A stretch of DNA of 64,000 nucleotides from a virus (Duplodnaviria; Caudoviricetes), in the IMG/VR virus record IMGVR_UViG_3300005611_000001, one strand, 5' to 3'. Made by a program: the position numbers and the translations under genes. Below are positions 4,194 to 24,625 of the stretch, piece after piece. Every line of letters begins with the position of its first letter. Position 1 is the first letter of the stretch. The notes below the pieces were generated by a model. That model worked only from the letters and a program-made list of their open reading frames with translations, was not told the origin of the DNA and made no database searches.

Positions 4194-5132
4194 ATGTCAA
4201 ACGATTTTCTGTGGGTCGAGAAGTATCGCCCGCGCAAGGTAGAAGATGCTATTCTACCGAAGCCTCTCAAAGAAGTCTTTACCAAGATCGTGCAGTCTGG
4301 TGAATTGCCTAACATGCTTTTCACTGGCACTGCAGGTCTTGGCAAGACTACAGTCGCGCGCGCTCTGTGTGACGAATTGGGATACGATTACATTGTGATC
4401 AATGGCTCTGAAGAGGGCAACATTGATACTTTGCGAGGCAAGATCAAGCGCTTCGCTTCTACTGTTTCTCTCAGTGGTGATCTGAAGGTTGTCATTCTAG
4501 ATGAAGCAGATTACTTGAATCCACAATCGACTCAGCCTGCTCTTCGTGGCTTCATCGAAGAGTTTTCGAACAACTGTCGGTTCATTCTGACCTGTAACTT
4601 CAAGAATCGTATCATTGAACCTCTACACTCTCGCTGTGGTGTGTACGAGTTTAATACGACCAAGAAAGAGATGCAGGCTCTCTGCGCAGATTTCTTTGTC
4701 CGTCTCATTCATATTCTTGAAAGTGAAGGCGTATCCTTTAATAAAGACCTGATCGCTCAATTGATCATGAAGCATGCGCCTGACTGGCGCCGTGTGATCA
4801 ATGAGTGTCAGCGCTACTCTATTGGCGGGCAACTAGAAACTACAGTTCTCAATAATGACGTTTCGGGCAACTATAGTGTTCTTTTCAAGGCTCTGAAAGA
4901 CAAAGACTTTAAAAAGATGCGTAGTTGGGTTGCGCAGAATGTTGATGTCGATGTTTCTGCAATTTTTCGACATATATACGATAGTATGTACGATTGTGTT
5001 TCACCTTCGTCCATACCACAGTTAATATTAATCCTTGCAGATTATCAGTACAAAAACGCATTTGTTGCTGATCACGAACTAAACGTGGTTGCGTGTATGA
5101 CTGAAATAATGGCAAATGTGGAGTTTACATGA
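4194..5132 (+). CDS. gp44: Clamp loader large subunit (AAA+)
   Basis: LWVEKYRP, GTAGLGKTT, VVILDEAD, RFILTCN, PLHSRC. Confidence 0.97.
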   Translation: MSNDFLWVEKYRPRKVEDAILPKPLKEVFTKIVQSGELPNMLFTGTAGLGKTTVARALCDELGYDYIVINGSEEGNIDTLRGKIKRFASTVSLSGDLKVVILDEADYLNPQSTQPALRGFIEEFSNNCRFILTCNFKNRIIEPLHSRCGVYEFNTTKKEMQALCADFFVRLIHILESEGVSFNKDLIAQLIMKHAPDWRRVINECQRYSIGGQLETTVLNNDVSGNYSVLFKALKDKDFKKMRSWVAQNVDVDVSAIFRHIYDSMYDCVSPSSIPQLILILADYQYKNAFVADHELNVVACMTEIMANVEFT

Positions 5133-5135
5133 CAA

Positions 5136-5930
5136 ATGTATCGCGACAATATTTTCTATTTTAATGGATATAGAAAAGAGTTTATAGATTTTAGAACTTG
5201 CCCAAAAAATGGATCAACTTCGATCAAAGAACTTTATTTAAAAACTTTGAGCCCTAAAGAATTGTATAATTATGAAAATTATGTAAAAACAAGCACGCAC
5301 GAGCCGCTGAATTGGAGACAAAGATTGATCTGGTTTTACGCTGATCAATTTGATATGCCTTTTCGCAAAAATTCAATTCGTTTTGCAATAAGAAGAGATC
5401 CTCTAGATAGATTTAAGTCCGCAGTTGAAATGTTACAGGCCCAATCAAAAATTGCAAAAGTTGATCCTGATATCAATGTCGATGGTTTTGACAAATCGTA
5501 TAAAGGCTATTCATCAGTAAAAGAAGTCTTAGACAAACTAGAATCAAATGAAATTGTAAATGCTCATTTTTGGACTCAGACATATTATATGGGTCATCCT
5601 TCTCAATATGATTATGTTTATGATATTTCAGAAATGGGCGCTTGTTTGACGCATGTGACGAATTTTGTTAGCTTGCGAGATTTACAGCTTGACAAATACC
5701 CAATCCACTTGCTGATGTCAAATAATTCTTCTGATGAAGATTTGGCAAAAGTAAAGTCGGAAGAATACAATTTTAAGAAGCGCATGGGTACACATTTTGA
5801 TTTTGTGAAAATATCAGAAGAAGAAAAAATAACAAGGCATATGACATCAATGGATTATGCAAGAGTCCGTAAACTTTACAAAATCGACTACGAAAATGGT
5901 TGGGGAATTCCCGCAAATGTATATCGTTGA
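5136..5930 (+). CDS. Sulfotransferase-family protein
   Basis: 5'-PSB-like CPKNGSTSIK, 3'-PB-like RRDPLDRFKSA, HFWTQ. Confidence 0.65.
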   Translation: MYRDNIFYFNGYRKEFIDFRTCPKNGSTSIKELYLKTLSPKELYNYENYVKTSTHEPLNWRQRLIWFYADQFDMPFRKNSIRFAIRRDPLDRFKSAVEMLQAQSKIAKVDPDINVDGFDKSYKGYSSVKEVLDKLESNEIVNAHFWTQTYYMGHPSQYDYVYDISEMGACLTHVTNFVSLRDLQLDKYPIHLLMSNNSSDEDLAKVKSEEYNFKKRMGTHFDFVKISEEEKITRHMTSMDYARVRKLYKIDYENGWGIPANVYR

Positions 5931-6540
5931 AAAAACAACTCCCTGGCCTCATTGGGTAATAGACGATTTTTTGCCCAAGCACGAATTTGAATATCTTCAG
6001 ATGCTCACAAAAAATTGGCCAAAACCTAGGGACACAATCGATAAGTTGAATTGCAGATTAGATTGGTTTAAATTCTATGATCAAACTTATAAATTCGATG
6101 ACGAAGCTATTGAAGTTCGAAAAATTTTAAAACGGTCTGCAAAAAGACTAGAAAAAAGATTCGATATAAAGAATAAGTACAAGTCTTTGCATCTTGAATA
6201 TGCAAACTGTGGGCGCGATTATTATTACAGGGTGCATGTTGATGCACAAACAAAGTTCATGAGCAATGTTCTTTATGTCTCTCCTGACGGTGATGGCACC
6301 AGACTTTTTTCAGATAAAAACATGAATGATGTTGTATATGTTGACTGGAAGCCAAATCGTTTAGTATCATTCTTGGTAGACGATTACAAATATCATGACT
6401 ATTACTCTACAGTTGATGATAGAATTACGTTTAATATTTGCTTTATGAATAGCAGTATAAACTCAAAAAATCCACCGAAAAGATTTGAAGGTGGTGATGT
6501 TTTAACTTTGAGGGACATCTATAATAATGAATCCATTTGA
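5917..6540 (+). CDS. 2OG-Fe(II) oxygenase-like protein
   Basis: HVD (HxD), distal YHDY, RITFN; start set at ATG 5917. Confidence 0.6.
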   Translation: MYIVEKTTPWPHWVIDDFLPKHEFEYLQMLTKNWPKPRDTIDKLNCRLDWFKFYDQTYKFDDEAIEVRKILKRSAKRLEKRFDIKNKYKSLHLEYANCGRDYYYRVHVDAQTKFMSNVLYVSPDGDGTRLFSDKNMNDVVYVDWKPNRLVSFLVDDYKYHDYYSTVDDRITFNICFMNSSINSKNPPKRFEGGDVLTLRDIYNNESI

Positions 6541-21530: not shown

Positions 21531-21800
21531 ATGACATTGTTCGGAGAACCGTTGGACAAAAAATCGATTGACTCTGATCTAAAAGCCCTGTACTCTTCTG
21601 TGCAGGGCAAAGTTGATCGTCATCTAGTCGAAGCGCTGGCTGATATTCGAAATGGTAAAGACCCCGAGGTTGTGCTGCGTAAGTTCAGCCGACTTGCAAC
21701 AAACACTCTTATTCATGGCCCCACAAAAGTAATTCGCGATCAAGACAATCCTGAACTGATCAAAAAAATCATAGGTATTGAAAATGAAGATAAATCATAG
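21531..21800 (+). CDS. Stand-alone glutamyl-tRNA reductase dimerisation-domain-like protein
   Basis: EALADIRNGKDPEVVLRKFSRLATNTLIHGPTKVIR resembles the HemA C-terminal A..L..G.D.E.VL.....LTNKLLH.PT pattern. Confidence 0.6.
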   Translation: MTLFGEPLDKKSIDSDLKALYSSVQGKVDRHLVEALADIRNGKDPEVVLRKFSRLATNTLIHGPTKVIRDQDNPELIKKIIGIENEDKS

Positions 21801-22640: not shown

Positions 22641-22874
22641 ATGGCAAACACATTTAAGTTTTATCTTCCTTTAATAGTAATTTTTGCTCTTTGCGTTTTC
22701 GGTCTGTTCGCGCCTGTAATCTACAGCGATGTGTACGGTGAGATTCTGAACAACTCACCAACGCTTTACATGCCGATGGTGAATGTTGATTATCTGACCA
22801 ATGAAATGTGCAATGATCCCACCAAACTGCACTATGTTCTTTGCGGTCTTGATGACTTGAATACTGTAGCATAA
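22641..22874 (+). CDS. Small membrane protein
   Basis: N-terminal TM helix; SD GAGG. Confidence 0.55.
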   Translation: MANTFKFYLPLIVIFALCVFGLFAPVIYSDVYGEILNNSPTLYMPMVNVDYLTNEMCNDPTKLHYVLCGLDDLNTVA

Positions 22875-22886
22875 TCGGTTATACTA

Positions 22887-23272
22887 TATACTATAGAACG
22901 CACTGCTTTGATCTAGAAGTGGCAAAGGCTACAATCAGACTAAGATCCCTCCATTAGGAGGGTACGCGGGGGAGGATCCCGCAGGCAGTGCGTCTCTTTA
23001 GAGTATAGATTGGGCAGAGCGAACATAACTTGGAACATAAACTCGTTGCTTCCAAGTGACTGACCGATTCCTAAGCGAGGTGCGGAATCCTAGCAATCTA
23101 TAAAGTCCTAAGGATTTAAAATCCTGGGCAGATTAATCACCGTGCGTGAAACTCGTTTCGGTTTGATTAGCAGCGGGTGGAAGCCCCGCACCTTTTTAGA
23201 ATAGGCACTGAGTATGCTTAAGCATCAGTTAGTCCTGTAGAGTCGCAATCTTGGGCAACAGTGTCTGTTCTA
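22887..23272 (+). ncRNA. Cluster of unidentified structured RNA domains
   Basis: ORF-free; helices 22898-906/22985-993, 23004-012/23094-102, 23133-139/23164-170, 23197-210/23259-272 plus many inner hairpins. Confidence 0.6.
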
Positions 23273-23273
23273 A

Positions 23274-23580
23274 TTTATTCGATGAAGCGGAGAGAAAGGT
23301 GATCTGGACAGAGGTTCAACTCCTCTCACCTCCACCAAAAGCACATACGCTGGATATGCAGATAGCATATTGAGACATAAGAAACATCAGGTATGTGCTT
23401 TTGATGGGGGTGTACTGGTTTCGACAGGTGCTAAGTATCAAAGTGGAGAATCGTCAAGCGCTGACGCTAAACAGAGCAACCTAAAATAAACGCAAACGAT
23501 GACGTTTATACCGAGGACTTTGCGCTAGCAGCGTAAACCTCGCGGGGTTCGCCGGAGCCTTGTTACCCAAGTCCGGCACT
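23274..23580 (+). ncRNA. ssrA: Circularly permuted (two-piece) tmRNA
   Basis: T-arm AGAGG-TTCAACT-CCTCT and CACCTCC-ACCA (ends 23337) lie upstream of the GGGGGTG...TTCGAC 5' end (23406); acceptor stem has G3.U70 and A73; tag ORF 23492-23536 ANDDVYTEDFALAA*; outer boundaries approximate. Confidence 0.9.
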
Positions 23581-23929
23581 AATTCGGAGAAATCTACAAA
23601 TGAAACCATTCAGTCAATACATTACAGAGTATAATGATGAAACTCTTGTGAAGAAGATAAAGCACCCTAGTGGGACCGTTTTAATGATCTCTCGCTACAA
23701 GAACGGACCCGATGAAGGTAAGTACATTGTTCGTGTATCCAAGAGTAATTATGAACGTGGAAAGCAGAATCGCACGATGCGAGCTATACACGATAAGCCT
23801 CTCGATGCAGAAGCAGCCGTCGCCCTTTTTAATAAAAGAAAGAAATCGATCTGGAAGAAAAAATGAAATCATTTCGACAGTTCTTCGCCTGGCGGCGTAA
23901 ACTTCGCGGGGTCGGCACTAATTCGGAGA
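23531..23929 (+). repeat. Direct repeat of tmRNA-gene 3' end flanking one ORF
   Basis: 23531-48 vs 23895-912 (17/18 identical) and 23574-90 vs 23913-29 (17/17). Confidence 0.8.
23600..23866 (+). CDS. Hypothetical basic protein with capsid-targeting-like N-terminus
   Basis: MKPFSQYITE; SD GGAG. Confidence 0.6.
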   Translation: MKPFSQYITEYNDETLVKKIKHPSGTVLMISRYKNGPDEGKYIVRVSKSNYERGKQNRTMRAIHDKPLDAEAAVALFNKRKKSIWKKK

Positions 23930-23935
23930 GAGTGA

Positions 23936-24625
23936 GTGCGAACATTACTGATTAGTGATGTACATATTGGGTTCAAGTTTTCTAGAGCCAAAGATGCAGT
24001 GACTGTTCTTGAAAAAGAAAAGTTTGACAGACTGATATTAGTTGGTGACATTTTTGATATTCAAAATATGATGCATCGTGCATACTGGGATGAACATCAC
24101 ACTGCCTTCCTTAAGAAAATCCTCAAACTGGCTAAGAAAAAAGAAGTCATTTATGTAATTGGCAATCACGATTATCCTCTCTATCATCTACAAGAATACA
24201 CCAAGAAAATAGCAGGCATTCATCTATGCCGAGAGTACACTTACACTTCGGGTGACAAGACAATTCACTGTGTTCACGGTGACCAGTTTGATTCTGTCTC
24301 GCGCAAGATTCAAGTTCTTGGTGATTTCTTCTATAATATGCTTCTGCATCTAAATCGTTTGATTGGCAGAATTCAGACACTGTTCGGATTCAAGTATCGC
24401 TCTTTTAGCAAGTGGTGCAAAGACAAGGTTAAGAACACGATCAGCAAAGCATTCTCAATTGAAGAGAAACTGCATGCAATAGATAATGTTGATGTTGTGA
24501 TTTACGGGCATACTCATATGCCTTATATTAGCGACACTCTTATCAACACGGGCACCTTTGTTGAGATTGCAACTTATGTCATTGAAGAGAACGGTGTGTT
24601 CGAACTAAAGGATTTGGATAAATGA
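23936..24625 (+). CDS. PlcP/LpxH2-like metallophosphoesterase
   Basis: ISDVHIG, LVGDIFD, GNHD, VHGDQFD, SFSKWCKDKVK, YGHTH, INTG. Confidence 0.8.
   Translation: MRTLLISDVHIGFKFSRAKDAVTVLEKEKFDRLILVGDIFDIQNMMHRAYWDEHHTAFLKKILKLAKKKEVIYVIGNHDYPLYHLQEYTKKIAGIHLCREYTYTSGDKTIHCVHGDQFDSVSRKIQVLGDFFYNMLLHLNRLIGRIQTLFGFKYRSFSKWCKDKVKNTISKAFSIEEKLHAIDNVDVVIYGHTHMPYISDTLINTGTFVEIATYVIEENGVFELKDLDK

Follow-up and report, generated by a model that had tools for sequence, protein, structure and literature searches.

Introduction

Small stable RNAs in phage transfer RNA (tRNA) clusters have been known since species 1 and species 2 of phage T4, and the corresponding genes, rnaC and rnaD, are a 50-year-old puzzle. 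In T4, rnaD lies 1 nucleotide (nt) behind tRNA-Arg, and rnaC lies 6 nt behind rnaD. Here, we describe a locus of a similar kind in a 64,000-nt stretch of viral DNA (IMG/VR record IMGVR_UViG_3300005611_000001; hereafter, the window). It is an island at 22895–23274, located between a σ70-type promoter and a permuted transfer-messenger RNA (tmRNA), that consists of four abutting folded domains, D1 to D4. We consider it probable, if only just, that D1–D4 ride as passengers in a stable-RNA operon and are freed from it as small stable RNAs by processing of the tRNA type.

Other described systems share parts of this setting. GOLLD and ROOL are phage RNAs that are often found near tRNA islands (bioRxiv 10.1101/2024.12.08.627333). 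Precursors of permuted tmRNAs are cut by tRNA-processing enzymes, and one of them is reported to carry an intact tRNA in its intervening segment (PMC11915505). Early promoters directly precede the tmRNAs of marine myophages (PMC9004378).

Results

A structured island without open reading frames

The original prediction described a ~390-nt island without an open reading frame (ORF), directly upstream of the tmRNA, and divided it into four abutting closed domains. Our analysis bears this out: an ORF scan found no plus-strand ORF of at least 30 amino acids inside the island, the tmRNA model begins 4 nt past D4, and all four domains fold where they had been drawn. On the minus strand, three ORFs of 32–33 amino acids overlap the island, and these are chance-sized. 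The promoter and the domains are as follows:

22857..22885, plus strand: σ70-type promoter TTGAAT-N17-TATACT, from a consensus scan; 10 nt upstream of D1
22895..22997 (helix-bounded 22898–22993), plus strand: D1, predicted tRNA-shaped four-way junction, from fold z-score, homologues and alignment A3
23004..23102, plus strand: D2, predicted three-way junction closed by 9 base pairs (bp), from fold z-score (-2.10) and relatives' copies
23102..23197, plus strand: D3, three predicted tandem hairpins, from 16 cores, covariance model R3 and covariation
23196..23273, plus strand: D4, predicted three-way junction, from fold z-score (-3.78) and alignment A4

The island as a whole folds with a z-score of -5.09, and none of 100 shuffles folded equally well. 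Folded singly, D1 and D3 give z-scores of -4.74 and -1.67, respectively. Thermodynamics by itself is convincing for D1 and D4 only, and the comparative data are the strongest evidence against chance structure. The junctions that join the modules are AU-rich. The GTCC..GGGCA motif recurs at 23105 and 23232, as had been noticed at the outset; in the ~1.5 Mb of fetched loci, such a recurrence near a tmRNA in comparable context is found in this phage group only.

The predicted transcription start, at ~22890–22895, is 3–8 nt ahead of D1. A promoter of the form TTGACT/TTGAAT-N17-TATACT/TATAAT heads the array in L001, L137, L160, L169, L177, L178 and L186 (L-numbers denote fetched loci), regardless of which module comes first. 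A promoter lies ahead of D1, and the ORF behind the tmRNA has its ribosome-binding site within the 3ʹ tail of the tmRNA coding piece; the region from the island through the tmRNA to the next genes therefore looks like one early transcription unit. Assembled metatranscriptome contigs hold the order ORF-promoter-D1(-D2) and a D1-D2-tmRNA variant.

The domains are cassettes shuffled among relatives

The window is part of an uncultured aquatic T4-type phage genome. Its genes include those for an SbcC-like nuclease, a gp43-type DNA polymerase, a DnaB-like helicase and a ribonucleotide reductase, and all listed ORFs with a family match are on the plus strand. The DNA polymerase is at most 56% identical to any GenBank phage homologue. 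A BLAST search of the island region against 50,697 GenBank phage records gave no match at 1e-5 and hence no close nucleotide relative; the D3 core, searched alone at a later stage, matched two Aeromonas phages in GenBank, and D1 matched none. We gathered relatives by pattern and protein-anchored scans of IMG/VR and JGI metagenomes, and these carry tmRNAs up to 98% identical to that of the window. The homologue sets were gathered with exact-match patterns, which biases which parts seem invariant, and the alignments are small (5 to 14 sequences). About half of the matches to a 16-mer from D1 were chance occurrences in coding DNA and were removed. Loci L002–L016, which share the downstream metallophosphoesterase gene, lack both the tmRNA and the island, and are uninformative.

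The relatives all keep the promoter, and the content between promoter and tmRNA differs:

Window: D1-D2-D3-D4-tmRNA
L137/L176: the order of the window, with a copy of the intervening hairpin inserted between D2 and D3
L177: D1, palindromic elements, module X, D2, module X, tmRNA
L169: D1, palindrome, X, tmRNA
L178: a further small ORF and another module
L186: D2-D3-X-tmRNA, with D4 within the intervening segment
L001: ~250 nt of other modules, D4, a 90-nt closed module, tmRNA
L072: D2 and a small membrane ORF, the latter overlapping the start of the tmRNA
L187 and L160: modules inside a 23-tRNA array, in the order tRNA-Tyr, D4, D2, hairpin, D3, tRNA-Met, more tRNAs

In addition, 12 nt separate D2 from the tmRNA in one metatranscriptome contig.

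Module X, which does not occur in the window, is another candidate RNA family. It has a CCCUCC/GGAGGG stem with a conserved 24-nt loop (AAGCCUCUUAACAAUGCUCAAAYC), often directly precedes the tmRNA, and occurs in L160, L169, L177 (two copies), L178 (two copies) and L186, with a variant in L001 at ~225–345. The 23-tRNA array of L187 also includes, at 4504–4588 on the minus strand, a tRNA called by ARAGORN with a four-base anticodon (cagt), which is possibly a tRNA of the frameshift-suppressor kind, or else a slot RNA called in error.

D1–D4 are independent cassettes shuffled among close relatives, and are units of inheritance. The island had first been read in three ways: as an array of small stable RNAs comparable to T4 RnaC/RnaD, as one novel large noncoding RNA, or as an expanded tmRNA acceptor piece. 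The first of these has stood, since the domains shuffle independently and D3 and D4 occupy slots in tRNA arrays. The mosaic of presence and absence contradicts the other two; therefore, the island is neither a single 390-nt RNA nor an obligatory extension of the tmRNA.

A GOLLD- or ROOL-like RNA, ~390 nt long and acting as a single unit, would account for a region that is contiguous, ORF-free and strongly structured as a whole, and GOLLD and ROOL likewise tend to be near phage tRNA islands (bioRxiv 10.1101/2024.12.08.627333). However, the domains occur singly and in other orders, matches to the D1, D3 and D4 models never occur together outside this lineage, and neither GOLLD, ROOL nor any other Rfam family matches them. 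We regard a single large RNA as the least probable of the explanations considered here.

If the acceptor piece of the tmRNA were expanded, D4, and perhaps D3 to D1, would stay on that piece and replace the ring of pseudoknots PK2–PK4. The 5ʹ end of the acceptor piece is the topological position of PK4 in one-piece tmRNA, as established by tmRNA architecture, and D4 stops 4 nt before the tmRNA model starts. However, near-identical tmRNAs are preceded by X, by a 90-nt module, by 12 nt after D2, or by an overlapping ORF; the front content differs for the same tmRNA (98% identical) in L001, L169, L177, L178 and L072. Moreover, the intervening segment, which is excised and hence absent from the mature tmRNA, can also house D1 or D4; tRNA arrays remote from any tmRNA contain D3 and D4; and D3 is also present in Aeromonas phages that have no tmRNA beside it. 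These observations make an expanded tmRNA very unlikely.

D1 is predicted to be tRNA-shaped and is linked to the tmRNA

The closing helix of D1 (ACGCACTGC/GCAGTGCGT) pairs 22898–22906 with 22985–22993 and encloses three hairpins, as originally predicted. The first is a long arm (AUCUAGAAGUGGCAAAGGC...ACUAAGAU), whose ~36 nt are invariant in sequence; the second is short and variable; and the third, beside the 3ʹ strand, has 5 bp and a 7-nt loop, and resembles a T-arm. Using the 16-mer from arm 1, and then a 30-position pattern, we collected 12 distinct versions of D1. In alignment A3, 93.1% of cells are paired, as compared to 28–42% with slid partners, and 10 pairs have changed on both sides, of which six belong to the closing helix, three to hairpin 3 and one to hairpin 2. 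Hairpin 2 has been exchanged whole (CCUCC/GGAGG, ACCG/CGGU and CCCGC/GCGGG). Homologues from viral metagenomes thus reveal covariation in D1, and the same is true for D3 and D4, described below.

The length of the D1 closing helix is 9–14 bp across versions, and the linkers are 2–4, 0, 3–4 and 0–2 nt long. In the T-arm-like hairpin, the loop-proximal GG/CC pairs are invariant, and positions 1 and 5 of the loop change together, being either U..A or G..G (UGAGAAU, UGGGAAU, GGAGGAU, GGCGGAU and GGUGGAU). The loop in the place of an anticodon loop is 3–5 nt long, and there is no CCA. Together, the closing helix, the linker lengths, the 5 bp/7-nt hairpin, its loop-end GG/CC pairs and its covarying loop positions indicate that the layout of D1 is that of a tRNA cloverleaf minus the anticodon loop and CCA. 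Hence, D1 has a tRNA-like four-way junction with tRNA-like linkers and a 5 bp/7-nt T-arm, in which the T-loop is a predicted one. Beyond true members, the covariance model of D1 (R1) detects only weak matches to real tRNAs and one tRNA-like element. A pattern search found neither the D1 core motif nor the D3 core motif in representative genomes of 185,579 prokaryote species; the modules occur in phage sequence.

Every D1 locus with enough flanking sequence has a permuted tmRNA 84–700 nt downstream, with the exception of L160, in which D1 heads a tRNA array. Seven D1 variants, in L129-type lineages, end ~5 nt before the tmRNA acceptor piece. In L149, L151, L179 and L183, D1 is itself the intervening segment of the tmRNA, between CCACCA and the 5ʹ GGGG, and its closing helix is the usual AAGCACA/UGUGCUU helix of that segment. 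Pairing of D1 arm 1 with the tag region of the tmRNA was considered and rejected, since the complementarity is lost in L129.

This placement bears on an alternative explanation, that the modules are leader or spacer elements that act only in cis, providing punctuation and protection for the tmRNA and tRNAs before being degraded. They could block 5ʹ-end-dependent decay from the transcript 5ʹ end, provide cleavage sites for RNase P, Z or E, or insulate folding. D1 would always share a transcript with a tmRNA or tRNA array, and is positioned exactly at a piece boundary, either at the transcript 5ʹ end, ~5 nt before the acceptor piece, or spanning from CCA to the 5ʹ GGGG. Furthermore, a closed helix ends 2–5 nt before the conserved start of the acceptor piece, whichever module is upstream, and theta ribozymes are a precedent for non-tRNA elements of an array that process a neighbouring tRNA (PMC10879173). 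On the other hand, D2–D4 are dispensable for the same tmRNA in L169, L072 and L177, and a plain spacer would not hold the 36 nt of D1 arm 1 or the core of D3 invariant across differing tmRNA tags, and across T4-like and ~46-kb Aeromonas phages. We consider a role exclusively in cis to be unlikely.

Two further observations concern the surroundings of D1. In L160, L169, L177 and L178, there are perfect palindromes of the type TTATTATGCGCATAATAA, some of them repeated, between D1 and the next module; these could be protein-binding sites or recombination hotspots. In L110 (reverse-complement ~5361–6060), ~700 nt that are non-coding and structured, as judged by eye, lie upstream of the permuted tmRNA of another phage, and hold a tRNA-like element with a 9-bp closing helix and a canonical T-arm that scores 29.9 bits with R1. 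This suggests that RNA islands ahead of phage tmRNAs extend beyond the lineage of the window.

D3 occupies tRNA-sized slots in tRNA arrays

D3 had been drawn as a GTCC..GGGC hairpin, an arm with a GTGAAAC loop, and a T-arm-like GCGGG-TGGAAGC-CCCGC hairpin, and all three were recovered at 23102–23197. Two patterns retrieved 16 distinct cores, which start with a conserved AAGUCC. Model R3 scores 89–102 bits in 19 viral loci, and 75–79 bits in the cultured Aeromonas phages phiA005 and 4_L372X, where the D3 stretches are unannotated. Hairpin 1 consists of a G-C pair, a bulged U and CC/GG, followed by a variable stem that occurs in five unrelated versions. The second helix (UUAAUCACC/GGUUUGAUUAG) is invariant, with a UU bulge; most members cap it with a GNRA tetraloop, in place of which the lineage of the window has a 14-nt extension. 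Hairpin 3 has 5 bp, three of which covary, and a T-loop-like loop, UGRAANC, which we take to fit the U-N-N-R-A pattern of T-loop motifs. It is followed by the trinucleotide ACC and then by a U/A-rich tail.

In arrays of 10–28 tRNAs, D3 fills a tRNA-sized slot. It begins 2–4 nt past the CCA of tRNA-Tyr or tRNA-Ala. Outside the window, 11 of 12 contexts have a tRNA 5ʹ end (tRNA-Asp, Ala, Arg, Gly or Met) 0–1 nt behind D3. Because the 5ʹ end of a tRNA is only 0–1 nt away, RNase P cleavage of that tRNA would define the 3ʹ end of D3.

In the window, hairpin 3 of D3 together with ACCUUUUU matches the pattern of an intrinsic terminator. Across the family, the tails are ACCAAUUU, ACCCAAUG or A-rich in many members. 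Since the U-tract is not conserved, and tRNA genes follow at a distance of 0–1 nt, termination does not appear to be the conserved role of D3. Three other assignments were rejected: the topology of D3 is unfit for a degenerate type-II tRNA and for a hepatitis delta virus (HDV)-like ribozyme, and the 11-nt GNRA receptor that hairpin 1 might have been is not retained in L001/L191.

Could one or more of the modules, and D3 above all, be a new catalytic RNA, self-cleaving or of another type, by which the preceding tRNA loses its trailer? In several arrays, AAGUCC starts 2–4 nt past the CCA of the preceding tRNA, much as for theta ribozymes (PMC10879173), and the core is invariant in sequence where a plain helix could vary. 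However, there is no match to a known ribozyme family up to E 10, and nothing lies between the 5ʹ strand of hairpin 1 and the inner stem, such that the nested double pseudoknot of HDV-like ribozymes cannot be drawn. Moreover, D3 in the window is preceded by D2 rather than by a tRNA. A catalytic module of this type is thus highly improbable.

The surroundings of D3 in other phages include further unannotated sequence. In phiA005 (L205, OM033133.1), ~460 nt at 1182–1642, upstream of tRNA genes, are ORF-free and unannotated, and hold the D3 homologue, a canonical T-arm fragment (GAGAGUUCGAAUCUCUC) and another element that starts with AAGUCC. There is also an unannotated stretch upstream of tRNA genes in 4_L372X (L206), which we examined for the D3 match only. 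Four loci have an oversized tRNA-Ile(UAU) of 92–95 nt (L193 2905–2999, L196 1645–1738, L201 4495–4586 and L202 12394–12488), a size that hints at an inserted sequence, an intron or a long extra arm.

D4 and D2 share an outer helix in relatives

In agreement with the original prediction, D4 has a long closing helix, of 14–15 bp (23196–23210 with 23259–23273), around two hairpins. One of these is capped by a tetraloop (AUGC-UUAA-GCAU), and the other is GUCC..GGGC with an inner AGA/UCU stem. In the alignment of five versions (A4), 99.3% of cells are paired, and eight pairs have changed on both sides. Compensatory changes include one in the tetraloop hairpin, where AUGC/GCAU becomes ACGC/GCGU, and one in the other hairpin, where AGA/UCU becomes AGG/CCU. 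D4 begins 1 nt past tRNA-Tyr in L187. In L186, the D4 core is within the tmRNA intervening segment, and its outer helix is replaced by that segment's own.

D2 is closed by the predicted 9 bp (TATAGATTG/CAATCTATA, 23004–23012 with 23094–23102), which lead into a three-way junction. In relatives, the closing helix is 16 bp long and includes an intact outer helix of 9 bp, UUUAGAAUA/UAUUCUAAA, that is common to D2 and D4; in the window and L186, the 3ʹ half of the outer helix of D2 has been lost at the junction with D3. The copies of D2 in L137, L160, L177, L072, L186 and L187 are 95–98% identical. Among approximately four substitutions, one (U-A to U.G) retains a pair, another creates a C.A mismatch, and a third breaks the proposed loop-loop pairing. 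The loops of the two D2 hairpins are partly complementary, and a kissing-loop interaction was rejected as it is broken in one relative. We conclude that D2 behaves as a cassette, as judged by its distribution, and that its variation is too small to judge its predicted fold.

The shared outer helix is adaptor-like, and raises the possibility that D1–D4 are selfish or neutral mobile cassettes that recombine into harmless slots with no benefit to the phage, in which case the fold would reflect terminal inverted repeats or the needs of the cassette itself. Consistent with this, the presence of modules varies among genomes with 98% identical tmRNAs, module X and the intervening hairpin are duplicated within one array, and the same region swaps small ORF cassettes flanked by repeats of the tmRNA tail. 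However, compensatory changes are also found in internal hairpins (hairpins 2 and 3 of D1, both of D4, and hairpins 1 and 3 of D3). Moreover, there is one full-length match per model in the 64-kb window, the only extra match being a weak one to R3 at 24002–24055 (15.2 bits, E 0.17), and none of the fetched contigs has repeated copies of D1, D3 or D4. Cassettes without benefit to the phage are therefore quite unlikely, in our estimation.

The permuted tmRNA and neighbouring genes

The tmRNA is a match to RF04321 (tmRNA_permuted; 113.9 bits, 23277–23536). ARAGORN, run on the 64-kb window, also reports a permuted tmRNA, with the tag ANDDVYTEDFALAA, and reports no tRNA. The pieces are:

23277..23337, plus strand: acceptor piece, ending in CCA at 23337, from RF04321 and ARAGORN
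23338..23405, plus strand: intervening segment, a predicted hairpin with a 13-bp helix, AAAGCACAUAC/GUAUGUGCUUU (z = -5.99)
23406..23595, plus strand: coding piece, from the beta_tmRNA alignment, which extends to 23595

A match to RF01850 extends to 23201 by way of an unpaired 5ʹ flank only, and scores 81.9 bits against a gathering threshold of 84. The hairpin of the intervening segment is the element that is copied between D2 and D3 in L137/L176, and the slot equivalent to this segment is the one that holds D1 in L149 and D4 in L186.

Downstream of the tmRNA (23516–23955 of the window), an ORF of 88 amino acids (23600–23866) is flanked by a second, slightly diverged 3ʹ tail of the tmRNA, such that 23883–23930 resembles 23530–23590. 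In L001, the closest relative, the entire insert is absent, and the metallophosphoesterase gene is directly behind the tmRNA tail. The ORF and its flanks have the look of a gene cassette that was inserted at this tail. Upstream, an ORF of 89 amino acids (21531–21800) matches only the dimerisation domain of glutamyl-tRNA reductase (PF00745, E 1.2e-7), without the catalytic domain.

The island modules match no known RNA class

The original prediction matched none of the domains to a known class, and our searches agree. In the window, only tmRNA_permuted passes the Rfam gathering threshold. On the island, there is no full family match in Rfam 15 at the gathering threshold or at a permissive E of up to 10; the sub-threshold hits, to whalefall-1 (17.6 bits, gathering threshold 37) and to a group II fragment (12 bits), are at noise level. 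The modules are not recognized as tRNAs: the tmRNA is all that ARAGORN reports in the 64 kb, the Rfam search gave no tRNA hit up to E 10, and D3 lacks an acceptor stem. Known self-cleaving ribozymes (hammerhead, twister, pistol, hatchet and HDV-like) gave no hit up to E 10 with permissive filters, and there is no covariance-model match to GOLLD, ROOL or other Rfam 15 families. The same is true for Y RNA/YrlA (RF02553), for which there is no Rfam hit, and a TROVE domain was found in none of the 10 ORFs around the island, which were the ORFs scanned for it. A limited full-text literature search, which included the topics of T4 species 1 RNA and noncoding RNAs in tRNA arrays, found no description of the D1–D4 families.

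Discussion

Comparative analysis of relatives indicates that at least three of the modules, D1, D3 and D4, are conserved phage RNA families without an earlier description, and that their structure is under selection. We propose that the island is the front of a polycistronic stable-RNA precursor that would be transcribed from the early σ70-type promoter and run on into the permuted tmRNA. The cassettes would stem from a pool of modules found in phages, where they take up “harmless” slots: the leader, spacers between tRNAs, and the intervening segment of the tmRNA. Every one of these slots is bounded by tRNA-type processing sites; therefore, we infer that the modules are excised as discrete small RNAs, presumably by RNase P, which would cut where the following tRNA or tmRNA piece begins, and by endo- or exonucleolytic trimming behind CCA. 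Once released by host RNases from such a co-transcribed precursor, the modules may be stable in the way that tRNAs are, owing to their own architecture: the terminal helices of D1, D2 and D4, the T-loop-like hairpins of D1 and D3, and the cloverleaf of D1. The arrangement would be the same as that of T4 rnaC/rnaD behind tRNA-Arg.

Several observations weigh against this interpretation. The metatranscriptome contigs also span the upstream ORF, such that DNA carry-over is possible, and they are silent on transcription, ends and strand; stretches that no contig covers are likewise uninformative. The terminator-like sequence in D3 means that part of the transcription may stop ahead of D4 and the tmRNA. 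D2 has no covariation support, and one lineage has a C.A mismatch in the main hairpin helix. Most of the both-side changes in the outer helix of D4 come from one helix swap, in L186, and not from stepwise compensation. The invariance of D3 helix 2 is partly an ascertainment effect, as this helix was fixed by the search pattern; nonetheless, it is retained in the Aeromonas phages, which were found by BLAST. Lastly, RNase P and RNase Z measure a 12-bp stack, and the closing helix and T-stem of D1 add up to 14–19 bp, which exceeds it. For comparison, bacterial YrlA is cut by RNase P only if it has a 7-bp acceptor stem (PMC4201824).

What might the excised modules do? Of the activities that we can suggest, the likeliest, although we lean against it, is that D1 and D3 are tRNA mimics, acting either as punctuation substrates for enzymes of the RNase P/RNase Z type or as ligands or decoys for host factors that recognize the tRNA elbow. 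As punctuation, D1 would act at the boundaries of tmRNA pieces. A bolder proposal, and one that we consider improbable at present, is that the modules belong to an exchangeable pool of “slot RNAs” that are excised by virtue of tRNA mimicry (cloverleaf, T-loop hairpins and ACC(A)-like tails) and then act in trans as effectors. Their targets could be the host translation or RNA-processing apparatus, or tRNA-directed defence, with D1 dedicated to the tmRNA and D3 possibly a processing ribozyme or an enzyme ligand. If this is true, slot RNAs would be an unrecognized class of phage effector RNAs, and T4 rnaC and rnaD would acquire a function. More generally, if the modules are processed and active, phage tRNA and tmRNA operons would be carriers of further effector RNAs, and the intervening segment of the tmRNA would be a cargo bay rather than a linker. 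The presence of D3 in two cultured Aeromonas phages makes bench work possible.

Comparison with described systems highlights both likenesses and differences. Like the island modules, HDV-like theta ribozymes of gut phage tRNA arrays are structured non-tRNA RNAs located a few nt from tRNA ends (PMC10879173). Unlike them, D3 has three unnested hairpins rather than a double pseudoknot, no catalytic-cytosine context was identified in it, and the habitat and phage groups differ. GOLLD and ROOL are also phage-encoded and beside tRNA islands; however, they are single RNAs of 500–800 nt with Rfam models, whereas the island modules are ~80–100 nt long and mutually independent. Y RNAs of the YrlA type are non-decoding and have a tRNA-like body with a T-arm, a D-like arm and a truncated anticodon arm (PMC4201824), which is reminiscent of D1. 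In contrast to YrlA, D1 has no Rfam match to that family and is linked to the tmRNA rather than to rsr; the GNCGAAN0-1G Ro60 motif was not sought.

The intact tRNA-Ala described in the intervening segment of a permuted tmRNA (PMC11915505) has a parallel in D1 (L149 group) and D4 (L186), which are predicted structured cargo at the same position. Unlike the tRNA-Ala, this cargo is not tRNA according to ARAGORN and Rfam, and it also occurs in leaders and tRNA arrays. Our limited literature search found neither a description of the same modules moving between tRNA-array spacers, tmRNA leaders and the excised intervening segment, nor one of a tRNA-shaped RNA that, like D1, is tied specifically to phage tmRNA.

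The closest described system is that of T4 rnaC (species 1) and rnaD (species 2). As in our locus, these are encoded by a T4-type phage, and are non-tRNA RNAs of ~80–140 nt that lie 1–6 nt behind tRNA genes in the same transcription unit. T4 rnaC resembles D1 in its closing helix, long arm, hairpin and T-arm, and the slot of rnaC and rnaD in the tRNA unit resembles that of the predicted D3 and D4 RNAs, which lie 0–4 nt from tRNA ends. The differences are equally clear. There is no detectable homology between rnaC/rnaD and the island modules: with filters off, R1 finds in the T4 region (69000–74000) only weak matches to tRNA-Leu and tRNA-Thr (11.8 and 10 bits) and a 20-nt match to the T-arm of rnaC (5.9 bits), and R3 has no hit there. 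T4 rnaC has a canonical UUCGAAU T-loop, whereas D1 and D3 have loops of the UGNGA/UGRAA type. Moreover, the partner of the island is a permuted tmRNA, whose intervening segment can hold the same modules. Hence, the island belongs to a known kind, that of phage small RNAs riding in tRNA operons; the families themselves, their link to a permuted tmRNA and the sharing of slots are, as far as we have checked, new.

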